NCBI GenBank assembly: GCA_964016885.1
Contig: OZ024745.1
Coordinates: 122,450,001-122,514,000 of the forward strand
Length of the DNA stretch: 64,000 nt
Reading direction: 5' to 3'
DNA from: Eledone cirrhosa
Taxonomy: Eukaryota
The translations under genes and the position numbers were made by a program. Shown in pieces: positions 24,349 through 49,964 of this stretch (the stretch's first letter is position 1; each line of letters begins with the position of its first letter). The notes under the pieces were generated by a model. It had not been told where the DNA came from and did not search any database. It saw nothing but the letters and a program-made list of their open reading frames with translations.

Positions 24349-24395
<47 letters not shown>

Positions 24396-24590
24396 ATATA
24401 TATATATATATATATATAATAGAATATAAAAGGAAAGCGAACACAGATATATAGATATATGTGTTCAAATCATAAAGGACCAGATTCGCTAAGGTGAAAA
24501 GAATACTAACTATGGACAATTGGGTTTGTTTGTCTCAATTTAAGAAAAAATTAAGAAAATAAATACAAACCGGAATTGTGGTAACTACCA

Positions 24591-24665
24591 ATCACCCAGA
24601 CAACTTGGTGTTTCGCAATGTTAATTGTGAATAGAATTACCAATTCAAGCTCATCAGTGGGTGAT
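24591..24665 (-). ncRNA. Type I hammerhead ribozyme, intact core
   Basis: AUCACCCA-CUGAUGA-GC..GC-GAAA-CA(CCAAGU)UG-UC-UGGGUGAU: perfect 8-bp stem I, 3-bp stem III, GUC cleavage triplet. Confidence 0.8.
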
Positions 24666-24933
24666 GAATTAGTATCCTAGACACTTCTAAGTATATTAAG
24701 AAACTGAATAGTGTGCTATATATAAAATAGCGCACATGGTATCCAATTGTCTATAGTTAGTATTCTTTTCACCTTAGCGAATCTGGCCCCTTACGATTTG
24801 AACACATATATGTATATATCTGTGTTCGTTTTTCTTTAATATTCTATTATAATATACAGCTCGGAAATATCTCTTTCTTAGAGCTATTTTGTTGTAAGAG
24901 ACCTTTTTGAGTTCCTAACTCAATATATACCTT

Positions 24934-24968
<35 letters not shown>

Positions 24969-25129: not shown

Positions 25130-26662
25130 ATATATACCTTTGTTAACTCTGATAGGTTTCGGTCAGTATTAGCCCAGGCCATGTCTAACTTAACAGCACC
25201 ACCTGGCAAAGTCTTTCAAATCAGGATTTCGACACCATGGCCCACACAAGTAGAGAATTATTGTTTATGGAGACATATCCGGGTGTAGGAGGTTTATCCA
25301 GGATTTCTTGAACATTATGGGGTCTTTTTTTGTTTTAATGTGTTTTGGCGTAATGTTATAGAGAGCAGGGCCAATTGAGGTGAAATAATTATGCCGTATT
25401 GTTGTTATGAGTGTGATTTTTGTTGTATTGGGTGTATTTTGAAGATGATGCCAACATTATTTGGGCAATGCTGATGGAATATTTTCCACATCATGTAGAT
25501 GATGTAGTGTTCATGGTGATGTTGGAGTGAGTAAAGTTTGAGTTTTTCTAGTCAACCCCAATAATTAAGGCCGTCTCTTTTTTGTGATTGACCTTTGAGG
25601 AGCTTCAATTTTCATGATACTTTATTTCGTGTGGGGAGACCACAGTGGACAACAGTACTCAAGGTGGGGTCAGGTGCATAAGTGGAGAAGAGAAGGATAA
25701 TAGTGTGGATATCTGTCGACTGGAAGTTCTGAGAACCCAGGAACACATTCTGTGGACCATGTCAACGTTGCTGTTTATATGAGAGGCCCAGCTTATGTTG
25801 TTGCCCACAATTGCTCCCATGTCTCTGATGTTGCTGGATGCCATGAGTGTTTCACCTGAAGGAAGGGAGTATGGGAGTTTCAGGGCATCTTCTTTTCCAA
25901 AGTGGATTAACTCAAATTTATCCTCGTTCAGCAGCATATTGTTGAGCTTCTGGAGCTTGGAATCATCTGCAAAGATTCTTATGTTGCTGTGCTTGGTGAT
26001 GTCAGTAATGTCATTAATGTAGATGATGAAAAGTAGTGGGCCCAACACAGTGCCTTGCTGAAAGCCACTACTGACTTTGGGTGGGCTTGATATTACTCCT
26101 TTGACTACATGTTAGACTCTGTCTTCAGGAAACACTTGATTCATTGCAGTAACTTTCCAGAGACACCAATGTTGGACAGTTTTTTCAATAGAATCTTGTG
26201 ATCAACCCTGTCAAAGGCCTTGCTGAAATCAAGGTAGATGACATCAGTGTTGGAGCCCTCTCCCAAACCTCTCAAAATGTATTCAAAATGATGCAGGAGC
26301 TGCGTTAGGCAGTCCCTTCCGTTACAGAAACCATGTTGGTTTGAGTTCAGCAGTCTGTTGCTTTCAAGAAAGTGAGTTATTCGTGATCTCACCACCCTCT
26401 CAAATACCTTGATGATGATATGAGAGGTGAGTGAGATCAGATGGTAGTTCACTGCAAGGGACTTGTTTCCCTTTTTGAAAACTGGGACCACAGATTGGGA
26501 CAGAAAGTTTTCAGGAATATAGCCAGTGTCCAGTGTCCAGTTCTTCCGCAGATTAGCAAGAGGAGATGCAAGTTGGAGTTGACACACCTTCAGGACACAA
26601 GCAGGGAACCTAGTGGGGCCTACTGCTGAATTGTGTTTAATTTCATTTATTGCCGCTATGAC
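25130..26662 (-). mobile_element. 5'-truncated, decayed CR1/L2-group LINE (RT domain and 3' end)
   Basis: NYHLISLTS, NQHGF, YLDFSKAFDRVDH, GPLLFIIYIND and FADDSKL motifs, with frameshifts. The 5' end abuts a (TA)n tract. Confidence 0.88.
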
Positions 26663-26664
26663 AT

Positions 26665-26665
26665 C

Positions 26666-26697
<32 letters not shown>

Positions 26698-26732
26698 TTA
26701 TATATATATATATGTACATATATATATTATAT

Positions 26733-26794
<62 letters not shown>

Positions 26795-26832
26795 TATATA
26801 CATATATATATCATATCATATATATATAATGT

Positions 26833-32235: not shown

Positions 32236-32564
32236 ATATATATATATGTATATTATATATAAATATATAATATATTTATATATATATATAAAATATCTAT
32301 ATATGTATATATATAATACATGTATATATAATATATGTATATATAATATATATATATTATATGTATATATATATATGTATATATAATATATATATATTAT
32401 ATGTATATATAATATATATATATTTTTATACATGTATATGTATATAATAAATATATATTATATTCATATATATTACATTTATATATATATAATATACATA
32501 TATATATTATGTATTATATATATATAATATACATATTATGTATATATATAATAAATATATATTA

Positions 32565-40914: not shown

Positions 40915-43900
40915 AATCACCGGGGGTGATGAAATCCCCGGTGGTTATGTAACCATACATTCACCAATCCTCGATAAGAGTGTTTAAATGTCGAACCTAA
41001 ACAGTTCGAATAACGGTGAAGTGGAGACTGGAATGTCATGTGACAGACTCTCACCCAGCAGGTGCTCCCTGGCTCAGCAGCAGGGACCTGGCTGTCAACC
41101 AAATACTGCTGGTGTCGGAGGAAGAAGAAGAAGGAAAGGGACCAGAACCAACTGGACGAAAGAATTGAATAGAACTGTTATGCAATGTTACCTGAAGAGT
41201 AACCCCAAGGAGAAAGACTATAGGAAACGGATGCATAGCATCTGGAACGAGATTGGTCTATTTAAATTAGATGAACAAAAATTGGCCGGGCAGGCTCGGT
41301 TAATAAGAACTAATGGGTGGATAAGCGAACTGGAGGAACTGAGCAGAGAGATTAGGTTGGAAATGGAGAGTGGAGTATGCCAGGCAAACGAGCCAGTGGG
41401 AAATGAAGGTGAAGAGGTTGAGAGAACGGAGGAACCATCCGAAGCAGACAATGATCTGAATGCTGAAATAAATAATACCTGGAACAAAGATACGGCCATT
41501 GAGGAAATGAATGCTGACGGGCTAGGACAAGATTTGGTTGATATCCTAAACTTAGTGGTAGATGAATTGAACAATGATAGTGGGAAACCTATGAACCTAA
41601 GATTTGTAGACAGGAAAAAGTTAAAAGAAACAACAGCTAAGGTAAACAAAGTCATCTCATACCTTGAGGCGAGGAGCCTTCACCAGTGCAACAATATCCT
41701 CAGAGCAACAGCAAATGCGGTGAGGAAATTACTTGGCATAAAAGCGAGAGGAAACAACAAACAAGAAAGATCAGAACCTTGGTGGAAGAAACGACTGAAT
41801 GGTCAAATCAGGGAAATGAGAAATGACATTGGAAAGCTTGAGTCCCTACTGAATGGGACACTACAAAACATAGACACTAAAAATAGACTGGAAATAAAGT
41901 ACAAAACTAGGAGGAAAAAGCTAAATATTATCATAGAGGAACTGAAGCAACGCATTGTAGCAAAGAGTGCAAAAATTAGGCGATACGAAAGCAGAGTCAG
42001 TCAGTATAGACAGAACCGCATGTTTGACAACAACCAGAAGATGTTATTTGGACAGCTTGAAGGGAAAGAAAGAGGCAACGACTTGATCCCTGAGGCGGAA
42101 CAAACTAAGACATTCTGGAGAGGAATATGGGAGCAGGATGTTAAACATAATGACCAGGCAGTATGGATTGAGACAGTACAAAAGGAGATTAGTGAACAGG
42201 CACACCAACAAACTGATTTGAGTATCACAGTTAAAACTCTTAAGGGGCAGGCCAAAAAACTAAATAACTGGAAATCACCAGGCCCAGATGGTGTGCAGGG
42301 GTATTGGATTAAAAATATAACATCTCTCCACCCGAAACTGACAACCATGTTCAATGACTGCTTGATGTCAGGTGAGGTACCAGAGTGGTTGACAAAAGGT
42401 ACCACAGTTCTGGTAATGAAAGACCGAATCAAGGGTAATGATGTTACCAACTATAGATCTATCACATGTCTGTCCGTAATGTGGAAACTGTTGACAAGCA
42501 TTGTGTCTGAGGAAATCTACCATCACCTTCCCACAAACAACTTGTTACCGGATGAACAGAAAGGATGCCGAAAGAAGTCCCGTGGTACAAAGGACCAATT
42601 ACTTATTGATAAGATGGTAATGAGGAATTGCAAGAGGAGACACACTGGTCTTGCCATGGGATGGATAGACTACAAAAAGGTATTTGACATGGTGCCTCAT
42701 TCTTGGATCACCAAAAGCCTAGAGATCTTCAAGGTGGCAGACAACATCAGACAGTTGTTGGGCAAAAGTATGAAGTCCTGGAAAACAGAGTTAACATCAG
42801 CTGGAGAATCATTGGGAGGCGTGAAGATCAAGAGAGGTATCTTCCAGGGAGATAGTCTGTCCCCTCTGTTGTTTGTCCTTGCCCTGATGCCTCTGACCAT
42901 TATACTGCGAAAAGTGAGAGCAGGATACAAGCTGGGAAAGGGAGAGCTTACCATCAATCACCTCCTCTTCATGGACGATCTTAAGCTCTTCGGGAAGAGT
43001 GAGAAGGAGTTGGATGTGCTTGTTGACACTGTCCGTATTTTCAGCAATGATATATGTATGCAATTTGGTATTAGTAAGTGTGGAGTCCTTGTGATGAAGA
43101 GGGGGTAAATTGAGCAGAAGCAACGGAATCCAGGTACCAACAGGTGAGATGATAAAGGAAATTGACACTGAAGAAGGATACAAGTATTTGGGTGTTCTGG
43201 AGGCTGATGACATCAAGAACAAAAAAAATGAAGGAATTGATAAGATCTGAATACATTCGGAGAGTAAGGGGCGTATTAAAGTCACATCTGAACAGTAGGA
43301 ATGCCATAAGTGCAGTAAATTCCCGAGCTGTGTCTATTATTAGGTACAGTGTGGGAATTCTGAGATGGAATATTGCTGAACAAAAAGAAATGGATAGGAA
43401 GTCTAGGAAGCTATTGACTATCTACAACATGTTCCACAAGAGGAGTGATGTCGATAGACTCTACTTAAGGAGTCCTGAAGGTGGAAGAGGTCTTATCAGC
43501 ATAGAGGACTGTGTTCAGATGGAGAAAAACAACCTACACAAATACGTGACTGATAGTAAGGAACCAATGCTCAGAATTGTACTGAAGGAGAGGACAATAG
43601 ACCAGGGGATGTCGAAGGAGGAAATAACAAGGAGAAAGAGCAGCCTTCATGAAAAATCCCTTCATAGTACCTTCTTTGAGAAAACTGAATTCAGAGATCC
43701 ACAGACATGGAACTGGTTGAAAAGAGGAGACCTTAAAAAGGCTACAGAAGGAATGCTAATGGCTGCGCAAGAGCAGGCCCTCAAAACGAAGTGGTTGAAA
43801 CACCATATTTACAAGGAGGAGGCTAGCCCACTGTGCAGGATCTGTGGAGAGAGAGAGGAGACTGTGGCTCACATTGTATCCGAGTGTAAACACCTAGCCC

Positions 43901-44496
43901 AGACTCACTATAAAGGCTGGAGACATGATGGGCAGGGTGATCCACTGGCTCCTATGCAAAGTAAACAATTTACCACATTCTGAGAAGTGGTATGAGCATA
44001 AGCCAGAGTCGGTGATAGAAAACGATCAGGTGAAGGTGCTGTGGGATTTTAGGATACAGACGGACAAGAAACTGGAACACAATGGACCTGACCTGGTGGT
44101 TTTGGACAAGGAAAAAAGATCGTGCCTGATAGTGGATGTGGCCTGCCCATTCGACACGAGAGTGCAAGAGAAGAAGGAGAAAATTAACCGATACCAGGAC
44201 TTAAAGTGGGAGGTAAAAAGGATTTGGAACTGCCATGAAATCAAAGTGGTCCCGATTGTCATAGGCGCACTAGGTACTATCTTAAAAAGTTTCCAGGGAT
44301 GATTAAAGAAAATTGGCCCCACCTCGCTTTTTGGAACGCTTCAAAAGGCATGCTTGCTGGGAACAGCAAGAACCCTCCGATACGTCCTGAATATCTGAGG
44401 CTGCAGGTAGTGGCTTGATATTCATTTCAACAAACTTTCCAGTTAACTAACATCAATGACTGAGACTCAAAGAACAATAATAATAATAATAATAAT
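40915..44496 (+). mobile_element. Near full-length R4/Dong-clade non-LTR retrotransposon (RT + zinc knuckle + restriction-like endonuclease), frameshifted, antisense in a RasGRF intron
   Basis: ORF from ATG 40988 with WKSPGPDG, GIFQGDSLSPLLF and HLLFMDDLKLF. CRICGEREETVAHIVSEC..RHD knuckle and PDLVV..DVACPFD..K..Y RLE. Frameshifts near 43105, 43225 and 43930, premature TGA at 44300, natural stop 44396-44398, (AAT)n tail. Confidence 0.92.
40988..44398 (+). pseudogene. Disrupted single ORF of the R4/Dong element (ORF-track pieces of 706, 273 and 125 aa)
   Basis: Pieces 40988-43108, 43162-43983 and 43925-44302 join into one RT-RLE polyprotein across three frameshifts and one stop. Confidence 0.9.
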
Positions 44497-46668: not shown

Positions 46669-46741
46669 TTAATCCATATTCATATTAACGATTTAATAAT
46701 TTTCAGACCAAGCCTTCTAAAAAAAACTTATGTTGACTTAC

Positions 46742-46859
46742 CATACGCATTTTCGAAAAGTTTACAAGCTTTTCATCTGTGAAATTTGGTGTACCTTCTT
46801 CAATAAAAGATAAATCAGTCAAATACATGCCAAGATATGGAATGCAGGGTGGATCACAT
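46742..46859 (-). CDS. RASGRF1: RasGRF exon (CDC25 domain, PCIPYLG motif)
   Basis: ttcag/gtaagt, 118 nt phase 2-0. [39 protein letters not shown]. Confidence 0.96.
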
Positions 46860-47760
46860 CTGAAAGATAAAATAACATGAGAAAATCAAATATGGGTGTA
46901 GGATATAAGTAAATAATAATTTGCATGAATGATGAAGCACAAATTTTCTGACAGTAAAAGTAGATAGAGGAATTGGATATAGAAAAGACTCTACACTTTT
47001 GGATAGAGGATAACATTTGAACATAGAATTTCCTAGTGATTCAAGTAGAAGGAAAATTAGAAAATGAAGACCAAGTAAGACACTGGAATAAGCATGAAAG
47101 TTGATCTAAGGAGGCTGAATCTTGTGGGTGACAAAAAGCCACAACAAATGACTCACCCAACCCATGAGTGCATCGAAAAAAAAACTGGATTTTACATCCA
47201 TTTTTTCCCCATACATTAATGGATTGGGTGAGTGTTCTCCATCATAGTGTCTTGCTATTTGAATCCAGTTTTGTCATAAATTGGATGGGTCTCAGAGTAT
47301 CTTGCCGCTTGTGGGGTTTTGTCATTGAGCTGTGACAGGACTAAATAATATTCTTTAACCTGTATATGTATGTTTTATTCAGTTACTGATAACCGAGATG
47401 GATTTTCTATACTATAGCTTGTGAAATCCATCTCACTTCTGTTTTGCTCTTGATAACAGATTGTGACAAGTGTTGATACGCCATAAGAAGCACCCCCAAA
47501 AAATCATCAGTGTTGCAATTAAGACCAGAGATTTTGTGCAAAGTTTATAAGATAAAGAATGTTTGTACACTTCATGACTGAATTATACTGTTGTGTGTTA
47601 GTCAGGTATTTGTCTTGTAAAATATTAGATCATCTAATGTTGATACAAAGAAAAATAATGCACTGAATTGAAGTCATATGAGAAATTAACTACAAATAAA
47701 ATTAATCATGAAGATGATTCAACATAGGCATAAGCTTGAACAAAGAAATATATATATATA

Positions 47761-48995: not shown

Positions 48996-49459
48996 ATATT
49001 TTACACAGCTACAGTTGCTGTGCCAGTTTTTTTTTCTGAGTAAAATGAATATTTTGATTGACAAACGTCACATCAATAAACTAGTAACCCCATCTAGCTT
49101 TGAAGTTATGAAATGTTGGAAAGAAATTCAAGCATGTTAGGACGAGTTATCTCATCCATGGCACTGGATTATGAAATATTATGTAGAAAATTTAAAGCTA
49201 AAGAAGAGATTTTTAATATTTAATGTTTATTTTTAAAATGCCAATTCAATATTTGTTCTGGCACTTTACATACTACATTCAAATCCCACCACGGTCAACT
49301 TTGCTTTTCATCCTTCCAGCTTCGATAAAATAAAGTACCAGTCAAGTACTGGGGTGTATTTAATTAACTTTGCACTTTCCCCCAAATTTACTGGCCTTGT
49401 GCTTAAATTACAAATCAATATTTGATATTTATTTAAAAAGTAAAATAACTATTTCTTAC

Positions 49460-49657
49460 CTGCTTTGATATCCTTTCCCACATTTTCTTCATTCTAAAAA
49501 CTGAACTGTTCACAAATGCAGCACATATCTGTAAGACACCATTGTAATTGTGCATGCAACGACAAATATCTGCGATTGCAGCCCACTTTTCAAGACATGC
49601 TACTCTGTCTTGTATATTGGTACGTCCAACAATTTCCGACACTACCAAACGACTCAC
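49460..49657 (-). CDS. RASGRF1: RasGRF exon (CDC25 domain)
   Basis: tacag/gtaaga, 198 nt phase 0-0. VSRLVVSEIV..LEKWAAIADICRCMHNYNGVLQICAAFVNSSVFRMKKMWERISKQ. Confidence 0.95.
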
Positions 49658-49964
49658 CTGTAAAATACAGAAAGAAATTTTAACAATACATAGAACAAAA
49701 TCCCTCAGAAAATTTAAATATACCAAATATTTAATAAAACAAATTTCATATTATTTTTTTCTTATAGCGTAATACAGCATTCAATTCTCTCGTAATTAAT
49801 TCTTTTGGTATCAACCTGCTTGAAACCACCACAGGTTCTGTGATACAAAACTGTTTGTTTTAAAGTGTTTATACTTATGTTAAAACCTTCCATCTTAATT
49901 TTATGTAAAATCTTTTTTTCATGTTCCAAACACCAGCTTAATAATGAAAATGTCATTTTATTAA

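Follow-up and report, generated by a model that had tools for sequence, protein, structure and literature searches.

A hammerhead-bearing repeat inserted head to head in a (TA)n microsatellite of Eledone cirrhosa and its likely relation to Penelope-like elements

Introduction

We analysed a window of 64,000 nucleotides from the genome of Eledone cirrhosa (assembly GCA_964016885.1, contig OZ024745.1, positions 122,450,001 to 122,514,000, forward strand); the window is this whole stretch of DNA, and coordinates given without a locus label are positions in it. Positions 24409-24941, from TA repeat to TA repeat, are one insertion made of two 5'-truncated copies of a ~510-nt non-coding repeat, lying head to head in a (TA)n microsatellite. 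One of the two copies carries a type I hammerhead ribozyme motif. The repeat family, which we call family A, is probably a retrozyme-type element that is non-autonomous and travels as a passenger of Penelope-like elements (PLEs). We place the probability of this reading as a whole at about 0.8. The original prediction, made from the sequence of the window alone, had described the same region as an intact hammerhead in the loop of a ~110-bp inverted repeat, whose minus-strand RNA would form a hairpin that cuts its own loop.

PLE insertions show strong 5' truncation and partial tandems known as pseudo-long terminal repeats (pseudo-LTRs, pLTRs), with an inverted 5'-truncated copy adjoining the 5' end and a tail that is often found at one end only (PMC8557442; this paper, PMC11167929, PMC7229834 and 10.64898/2026.07.22.740005 are cited throughout for extracts of each). 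They are biased to microsatellites, (TA)n included, and their hammerheads typically lie in the pLTRs (PMC8557442). The tail, 30-40 bp long in published PLEs, is termed unique to PLEs in the extracts of PMC8557442 and PMC11167929. A purified PLE protein cuts both strands of the DNA and extends each of them, and reverse transcription begins at two internal RNA sites, the interval between which equals the tail (PMC11167929). In the literature, PLEs whose endonuclease is C-terminal are said to carry hammerheads as a rule. Most animal type I hammerheads are found in non-autonomous, non-LTR retrozymes linked to PLEs (PMC7229834), and retrozymes are related to PLE pseudo-LTRs; their units measure 51-972 bp, and the share of monomers ranges from 0 to 1 (10.64898/2026.07.22.740005). 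In the canonical metazoan hammerhead, helix II has 4 bp and helix III 1-2 bp (PMC4209133).

Results

The insertion at 24409-24941

The window was mapped by BLAST with a natural full unit of the repeat as query (L016:1317-1837; loci are labelled L with a number). Together with the repeat search and direct reading of the sequence, this gave the following features:

24351-24412, no strand: (TA)n microsatellite, left flank and target site (sequence reading)
24409-24743, minus strand: copy A, unit positions 185-521, 5'-truncated and hammerhead-bearing (BLAST, 94.1% over 338 nt)
24415-24523, no strand: left arm of the inverted repeat, made up of the last ~110 nt at the 3' end of copy A (repeat search)
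24591-24665, minus strand: type I hammerhead motif (sequence reading, motif scanner, covariation across families)
24743-24851, no strand: right arm of the inverted repeat, made up of the last ~110 nt at the 3' end of copy B (repeat search)
24743-24856, plus strand: copy B, unit positions 408-521, inverted partner with no hammerhead (BLAST, 94.7% over 114 nt)
24845-24941, plus strand: tail, unit positions 1-97 (BLAST, 95.9% over 97 nt)
24936-24965, no strand: (TA)n microsatellite, right flank (sequence reading and repeat search)

Copy B is more severely 5'-truncated than copy A and is joined to it head to head. The tail prolongs copy B into the next unit as a partial tandem and was found at that end only; the 3' end of copy A adjoins (TA)n with no tail. 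The inverted repeat reported at ~110 bp was recovered with arms of 109 nt that are 93% complementary and 219 nt apart, and TA repeats on both flanks (~24351-24412 and 24936-24965) bear out the statement that the whole structure sits within (TA)n.

Family A and its unit

With the 443-bp stretch of the window as query, 40 of the 2658 first-look candidates in the 3.0-Gb genome were scored and gave 140 matches. Most copies covered only query positions 3-331 (the left arm and the loop), at 93-95%. The unit was defined by aligning 32 distinct copies in the hammerhead sense and by comparing loci. The natural full unit named above is 521 nt long, and similarity among loci ends there. Since its first 11 nt are the same as its last 11 nt, the period is ~510 nt. 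The longest open frame in the unit was 56 codons, also when reading through two units.

A 24-mer over helix I and the core of the hammerhead occurred 63 times in the genome, while its reversed control occurred 0 times. We fetched every 24-mer site, which gave 57 loci and, with the window, 58 loci holding 68 hammerhead-spanning copies; chosen in this way, the sample is biased to copies whose 5' half is intact. Many variants of the family, but no RNA ends, were seen in short DNA-like contigs from one sample.

Insertion architecture across the family

The neighbours of the 68 copies differed between the two sides. On the 5' side, 39 copies adjoined an inverted copy and 6 a direct partial one, and 23 had no neighbour. 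On the 3' side there was no inverted neighbour in any copy; 28 copies continued directly into unit positions 1-97 and the other 40 had no neighbour. Fourteen of the 68 copies started at unit positions 1-3, and 54 were truncated at positions 28-289. The inverted partner ranged in length from tens of nucleotides to ~390 nt, with junctions at variable unit positions.

Among the 32 head-to-head composites, 28 ended on one outer side at unit position 521 and on the opposite side with the tail (~position 97), and the remaining four had an irregular end. No composite had tails at both ends, and none lacked a tail at both. The tail length was 86 nt. TA runs of at least 8 nt adjoined 44/58 left and 43/58 right composite ends, compared with 37/232 control positions in the same loci. 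The longest tandems were ~1.6 units plus an inverted copy (L122) and a dimer of the related family B (described below), and two direct hammerhead regions were present in both.

Family A therefore has the 5' truncation, the partial tandems and the 5' inverted truncated copy of PLE insertions, as well as the one-ended tail, though at 86 nt rather than 30-40 bp. Fixed terminal inverted repeats in all copies, as in miniature inverted-repeat transposable elements (MITEs), were not found: 29/68 copies had no inverted partner, the arms were variable and the outer ends asymmetric. Since an inverted partner of variable arm length was present in 39/68 sampled copies, we rejected the idea that the hairpin of the window is a self-cutting device. 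The hairpin is the usual by-product of the integration of this repeat family.

The hammerhead motif of the window

The hammerhead core consists of C3-U4-G5-A6-N7-G8-A9, G12-A13-A14 and the A15.1-U16.1 pair, and the motif in the window contains all of these. Read on the minus strand, helix I is formed by AUCACCCA (24665-24658) and UGGGUGAU (24598-24591) with 8 perfect pairs. The CUGAUGA box follows at 24657-24651, helix II as a 36-nt hairpin at 24650-24615, the GAAA box at 24614-24611 and helix III at 24611-24600, which reads C-A-[CCAAGU]-U-G and then U16.1 and C17. G16.2, U16.1 and C17 occupy 24601-24599, with U16.1 at 24600 and C17 at 24599. The N-U-H cleavage triplet (H is not G) is GUC and is followed by the 3' strand of an open helix I, UGGGUGAU; the cut is predicted from the sequence to fall between 24599 and 24598, which corresponds to about 332/333 in the unit. 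The motif is of type I, because its 5' and 3' ends exit via helix I. This direct reading confirmed the minus-strand hammerhead that had been described, with its 8-bp stem I, its CUGAUGA/GAAA boxes and its GUC at 24601-24599. The published descriptor cuganga ... gaaa, as given in the extract of PMC8557442, agrees with the core definition used.

The motif scanner returned 8 pairs for helix I, 2 for the base of helix II and 3 for helix III. Among 60 simulated 64-kb sequences, the same scan found 0 motifs with an 8-bp helix I and 4 with a helix I of at least 4 bp. To find one motif with so long a helix I in a single window is unusual, yet it is not decisive in a 3-Gb genome; it is because of the family evidence that the motif is taken as more than chance. 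A second scanner match in the window, at ~32493-32523 (plus strand) in TA-rich simple sequence, had 4, 2 and 3 pairs in helices I, II and III and is at the level expected by chance.

Two other readings of the ribozyme were tried and dropped. A type III reading via an upstream GUC, taken from the Hammerhead_3 alignment, was rejected with that GUC absent in family B and the helices mismatched. A dimeric hammerhead through a palindromic loop III was rejected as well, the helix III strand being without self-complementarity when read by eye.

Conservation of the hammerhead in families A, A2, B and C

A second family, family B, gave 1095 first-look candidates and is ~68% identical to family A over the unit. 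Its core reads CUGAGGA (a change at the free position N7), GAAA and GUC; its helix I is AACAACUA/UAGUUGUU and its helix III CAGUUUU/AAAACUG. Sixteen natural copies, drawn from families A, A2 (L002) and B and all chosen for passing the motif scan, were aligned. The core CUGANGA/GAAA/GUC was invariant in all 16 copies. Across the 17 hammerhead pairs, 92.7% of cells were paired, compared with 27-41% when partners were slid by 1-3 columns.

Double-sided, compensatory changes were seen in five pairs, three in helix I and two in helix III. No pair of these two helices was broken between the families, and 99.2% of the cells of helix I and 100% of those of helix III were paired. The comparison covers 2-3 independent lineages only. 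The ten changed positions, all in compensating pairs, would be hard to explain without selection on the fold in master lineages. Since the sister family keeps the core with five compensatory pair changes, the ribozyme appears to have been maintained at the level of the family, and the claim that the hammerhead is genuine is supported by this covariation of helices I and III across element families.

A third short repeat family, family C, also ends in (TA)n and has head-to-head palindromic junctions. It carries a compact canonical type I hammerhead, CUGAUGA-GUCC..GGAC-GAAAC-AUU-GUC (L080-L091, e.g. L081:1440-1605), and passed Rfam Hammerhead_1 with 18 matches over 34 bits from 74 scored. By eye, a short stretch, TTCGGCTC(C/T)GTT, is common to families C and A.

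The motif scan was passed by 24/32 family A copies, and nine intact motifs were found in family B across 25 loci. The GAAA box was altered in 9/63 sampled copies, six of them by G-to-A at CpG. Individual copies decay. In a separate observation, L027:504-590 (plus strand) showed a motif that resembles a hammerhead but is unrelated to those above, CUGACGA ... GAAA ... GUA. Its helix II is long and its minimum-free-energy fold is the three-way hammerhead junction; it could be another ribozyme-bearing repeat or a chance match.

Decay and predicted folding of the window copy

The sampled copies showed several forms of the segment that starts at position 15.2 and ends with C17, comprising helix III, the helix III loop and the site of cleavage. 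CAACAACAAGUUGUC was present in 14/63 copies, CAACACCAAGUUGUC in 9/63 with 2 more showing a neighbouring change, and CAACAAGUUGUC in 7/63 with 1 more of that kind. The window copy alone showed CACCAAGUUGUC (1/63), a form shared by copy L004, which lies outside the 63. The window copy has a 3-nt deletion that reduces helix III from 5 pairs to 3. The hammerhead had been called intact, and this description holds for the core and the 8-bp helix I but not for helix III, with its deletion in 1/63 sampled copies. Because the arms are 93% alike and helix III carries this deletion, the window copy has mutated since it was inserted.

Four copies were folded with the hammerhead constrained and unconstrained. 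The energies ignore tertiary contacts and are predictions, not measurements:

Window copy: constrained -11.0 kcal/mol, unconstrained -20.2 kcal/mol
L012: constrained -15.1 kcal/mol, unconstrained -19.6 kcal/mol
L002: constrained -19.2 kcal/mol, unconstrained -22.0 kcal/mol
Family B: constrained -13.5 kcal/mol, unconstrained -16.0 kcal/mol

The minus-strand RNA of the window (448 nt) was predicted to form the proposed long hairpin (-203.6 kcal/mol, z -22.9), but the hammerhead that was to cut its loop did not form in the predicted fold. Forcing the hammerhead within the full 448-nt hairpin RNA cost 9.4 kcal/mol, and in that RNA the CUGAUGA box was predicted to pair with an upstream UCAUCA. In family A, AGCUUG at the start of helix II is also complementary to CAAGUU in helix III. 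These alternative pairings (UCAUCA-CUGAUGA and AGCUUG-CAAGUU; window 24665-24651, minus strand) dominate the predicted folds, and on such models they might keep the ribozyme from working. For the window copy we predict hardly any self-cleavage, if any at all, and no role at the locus; it would be a by-product in decay.

Penelope-like elements in the genome

We searched the genome with the GIY-YIG profile, and all 150 matches scored, of 10597 first-look candidates, were above the Pfam cut-off. PLEs co-occur with the repeat in the E. cirrhosa genome, as expected for retrozymes. Four long open PLE frames, of 636-1096 aa, were found. They have a reverse transcriptase and, C-terminal to it, a GIY-YIG domain, as well as a CxxC-type linker, and microsatellites flank them:

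L051:1775-5062
L052:4809-7622, minus strand
L053:2688-5219
L054:4722-6629, minus strand

We compared 24 PLE loci, a small sample that holds the best-scoring GIY-YIG matches only, with the family A unit and with natural copies of families B and C. Copies of the tail module (~85 nt, unit positions ~3-90) were found at L054:2529-2614 and L033:464-552, 1-2 kb from PLE frames. A search of PLE frames against the repeat loci with tblastn placed one PLE 3' end 660 nt from a family B copy (L069); we read this as a nested insertion in the same TA repeat and did not retain it.

Genomic neighbourhood

The element had been placed downstream of RasGRF on the same strand. RasGEF-domain exons do lie on the minus strand, with the element ~22 kb past the stop codon:

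49436-49750, minus strand: RasGEF-domain exon, Pfam PF00617, profile positions 48-117 (E 1.1e-18)
46706-46885, minus strand: RasGEF-domain exon, Pfam PF00617, profile positions 145-181 of 181 (E 3.7e-12)

A stop codon follows 13 residues after the end of the RasGEF profile in 46706-46885, which appears to be the last RasGEF coding exon. Nothing ties the element to the RasGEF gene.

Reverse-transcriptase frames of the long interspersed nuclear element (LINE) type were also present in the window, at 40988-43108 (plus), 43156-44302 (plus) and 25662-26815 (minus). The plus-strand LINE has one open frame of 706 aa followed by further open frames, and a broken RVT_1 fragment lies on the minus strand ~1 kb from the element. 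TA and CA microsatellites were pervasive and serve as nesting sites for several repeat families. At the level of the genome, there are four chromosomes of 379-443 Mb beside many of 24-137 Mb.

Discussion

Comparison with known elements

Because the pattern of partners and tails matches the published signature of PLE insertions, family A is most likely a non-autonomous element of the retrozyme type. It shares with PLEs (Cervera & de la Pena 2014, PMC4209133; Craig et al. 2021, PMC8557442; Frangieh et al. 2024, PMC11167929) the 5' truncation, the partial tandems and the 5' inverted copy. The one-ended tail, insertion into a microsatellite, here (TA)n, and a hammerhead in the repeated non-coding part are further likenesses (PMC8557442). 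On the other hand, the family A unit has no reverse transcriptase or endonuclease frame, and its stable helix III differs from the minimal, dimer-dependent form of the hammerheads in PLE pLTRs.

With the non-LTR retrozymes of animals (Cervera & de la Pena 2020, PMC7229834; Li et al. 2026, 10.64898/2026.07.22.740005; extracts) family A has in common a short non-coding repeat, one type I hammerhead per unit, coexistence with abundant PLEs and a unit whose ~510 nt fall within the range of 51-972 bp. As in retrozymes, copies that exceed one unit imply a tandem or circular template. The hammerhead itself departs from the canonical metazoan form (PMC4209133) in its interrupted 36-nt helix II and its helix III of 5-7 pairs. 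Satellite hammerheads of newts, schistosomes and Dolichopoda cave crickets (pDo500, PMC2837043) are also repeat-borne, of type I and marked by compensatory changes in the helices, and the unit of pDo500 is ~500 bp. However, those satellites form long tandem arrays with compact hammerheads (49 bp in pDo500), whereas family A is dispersed in TA repeats, single or head to head, with a hammerhead of 75-82 nt.

Evidence against the proposed reading

Several results weigh against the proposed reading, both in its link to PLEs and in its ribozyme. No autonomous PLE that shares sequence with the unit was found among the 24 PLE loci, which gave only isolated tail-module matches of 58-90 nt, in L033 and L054, non-contiguous with the open frame. 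The four long PLE copies had no sense-strand hammerhead core, apart from one unconvincing motif, and scanning the PLE loci for such cores gave no convincing one. The 86-nt tail is longer than the published one. The classical tandem layout of retrozymes is only partly present: the unit is non-coding, 28/68 copies continue into unit positions 1-97 and 6/68 have a direct partial copy upstream, but family A, unlike the non-LTR retrozymes, occurs mostly as monomers, partial dimers and head-to-head pairs, and no array of at least three units was found in the 58 loci sampled.

As for the ribozyme, helix II of the window motif has two basal pairs (G-C and C-G) followed by U/U mismatches, and helix III has three pairs only, with a 6-nt loop. 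In the alignment of 16 copies, helix II was without covariation and 71.9% paired, with only the two basal pairs universal and the third and fourth pairs unpaired in 9/16 sequences. The hammerhead fold was not the nearest-neighbour optimum in any of the four copies folded and lay 2.5-9.2 kcal/mol above it, worst in the window. No Rfam match reached its gathering score anywhere in the window, where at E<=10 RAGATH-1-hammerhead scored 19.9 bits (gathering score 56.3) and Hammerhead_3 17.2 bits (gathering score 48.5), and no Rfam hammerhead family was found at E<=1 in six family loci. The compact Rfam models penalise the long helix II insertion. The hairpin-type microRNA matches of Rfam in the same six loci were traced to palindromic junctions and TA repeats and discarded.

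Alternative explanations

The most probable rival is that a short hammerhead-bearing retroelement or satellite was moved by something other than a PLE, e.g. a microsatellite-targeting LINE, or spread at the level of DNA. The lack of an autonomous PLE with the modules of the unit among the 24 PLE loci and a tail longer than in PLE descriptions are in its favour, and LINE reverse-transcriptase fragments are common, in the window as well. Nevertheless, a 5'-only inverted partner, partial tandems, a one-ended tail and a hammerhead together are the combination of PLEs in the extracts of PMC8557442 and PMC11167929, and we regard this rival as unlikely. The LINE version of it meets a further difficulty in the duplicated 3' end. 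Twin priming of the L1 type inverts an internal segment and gives no such duplication.

Less probable than mobilisation by another element is the local regulatory device of the original prediction, a purpose-built hairpin whose loop ribozyme would cut the hairpin itself or RasGEF read-through RNA. The strongly predicted hairpin, the intact core in its loop and the strand shared with the RasGEF exons speak for it. Yet the arrangement recurs at dozens of unrelated loci with arbitrary arm lengths, so it reflects the mechanism of insertion and not local selection. The divergence of the arms, the deletion in helix III and the 9.4 kcal/mol cost of the hammerhead fold do not fit a maintained device either, and other retroelement fragments lie between the element and the RasGEF stop codon. 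Cleavage of read-through RNA 22 kb beyond that stop codon is pure conjecture.

The two readings that leave the hammerhead to chance or the repeat to DNA transposition are less probable still. In the first, the motif would be a fortuitous match with no catalytic role in any copy, which would agree with Rfam scores below threshold in the window and the six family loci, with the poorly paired helix II of family A and with a predicted optimum other than the hammerhead fold. It has to account, however, for a core that is invariant in the 16 aligned copies (themselves chosen for passing the motif scan), for five compensatory pairs between families that differ by ~32% while helices I and III stay unbroken, and for a third family of the same insertion habit that passes Rfam Hammerhead_1. 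We consider it highly improbable. In the second, to which we give an equally slight chance, the insertion would be a MITE with ~110-bp terminal inverted repeats, a TA target-site duplication and a chance hammerhead-like motif. Like MITEs and foldback elements, it has inverted termini that adjoin TA on both sides, and its copy number is high. But 23/68 copies have no 5' partner and 6/68 a direct one, the partners vary in length and junction position, and the outer ends differ systematically (position 521 and the tail end in 28/32 composites). Variable arms, partnerless copies, asymmetric ends and 5' truncation together show an origin as a retroelement, not as a MITE or foldback element. Partial tandems occur as well, and the compensatory evolution of the hammerhead argues that it is not there by chance.

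Proposed mechanism

For the retrozyme-type, PLE-linked element that we favour, the following route may be proposed. A PLE reverse transcriptase/endonuclease would cut the TA repeat, and complementary DNA (cDNA) would be primed from each of the two DNA ends on the RNA of the element, with one start at unit position 521 and a second 86 nt beyond it, at position 97. Joining of these cDNAs at a variable meeting point would yield an inverted repeat of arbitrary length. The template was likely a multimer or a circle, because 28/68 copies extend over the boundary between units and those of full length make exactly one turn. Master copies with two direct hammerheads (e.g. L122) may supply it: the ribozyme would cut multimeric transcripts to unit length, and a cellular ligase would circularise the unit-length RNA, as has been proposed for retrozymes, so that the template exceeds one unit. 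The window copy would be one product of this dual priming that has mutated since. Whether each head-to-head pair is the fossil of a single integration, with both ends of the TA repeat priming on one hammerhead RNA at two fixed sites 86 nt apart, is a more tentative matter, and we hold it at somewhat below even odds.

Significance

The locus itself matters little: it holds a single copy of a mobile element, now decayed, and nothing suggests that this copy does anything for the RasGEF gene nearby. It does carry a caution for genome scans, in that a ribozyme enclosed by an inverted repeat may owe that setting to integration. The kind of element, a PLE-type, retrozyme-like hammerhead repeat, is already known, and family A is a further member; it adds a well-resolved, hammerhead-bearing, non-autonomous element that targets TA repeats. 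Structure-aware family searches miss hammerheads with such long helices, which are recovered by comparing repeat families. The scars of insertion, namely the 5'-only partner and the one-ended tail of 28/32 pairs, match the PLE integration model and could help to test it. If the pairs are indeed fossils of single integrations, the family would be a genome-wide in vivo footprint of dual-strand priming from two start sites, a mechanism that has until now been demonstrated for a single lizard PLE, and only in vitro. The mechanism would then extend to a ribozyme-bearing passenger, with the copies longer than one unit pointing to a circular or multimeric template, and the long interrupted helix II together with the stable helix III would represent a monomer-active metazoan variant of the hammerhead that current Rfam models miss.

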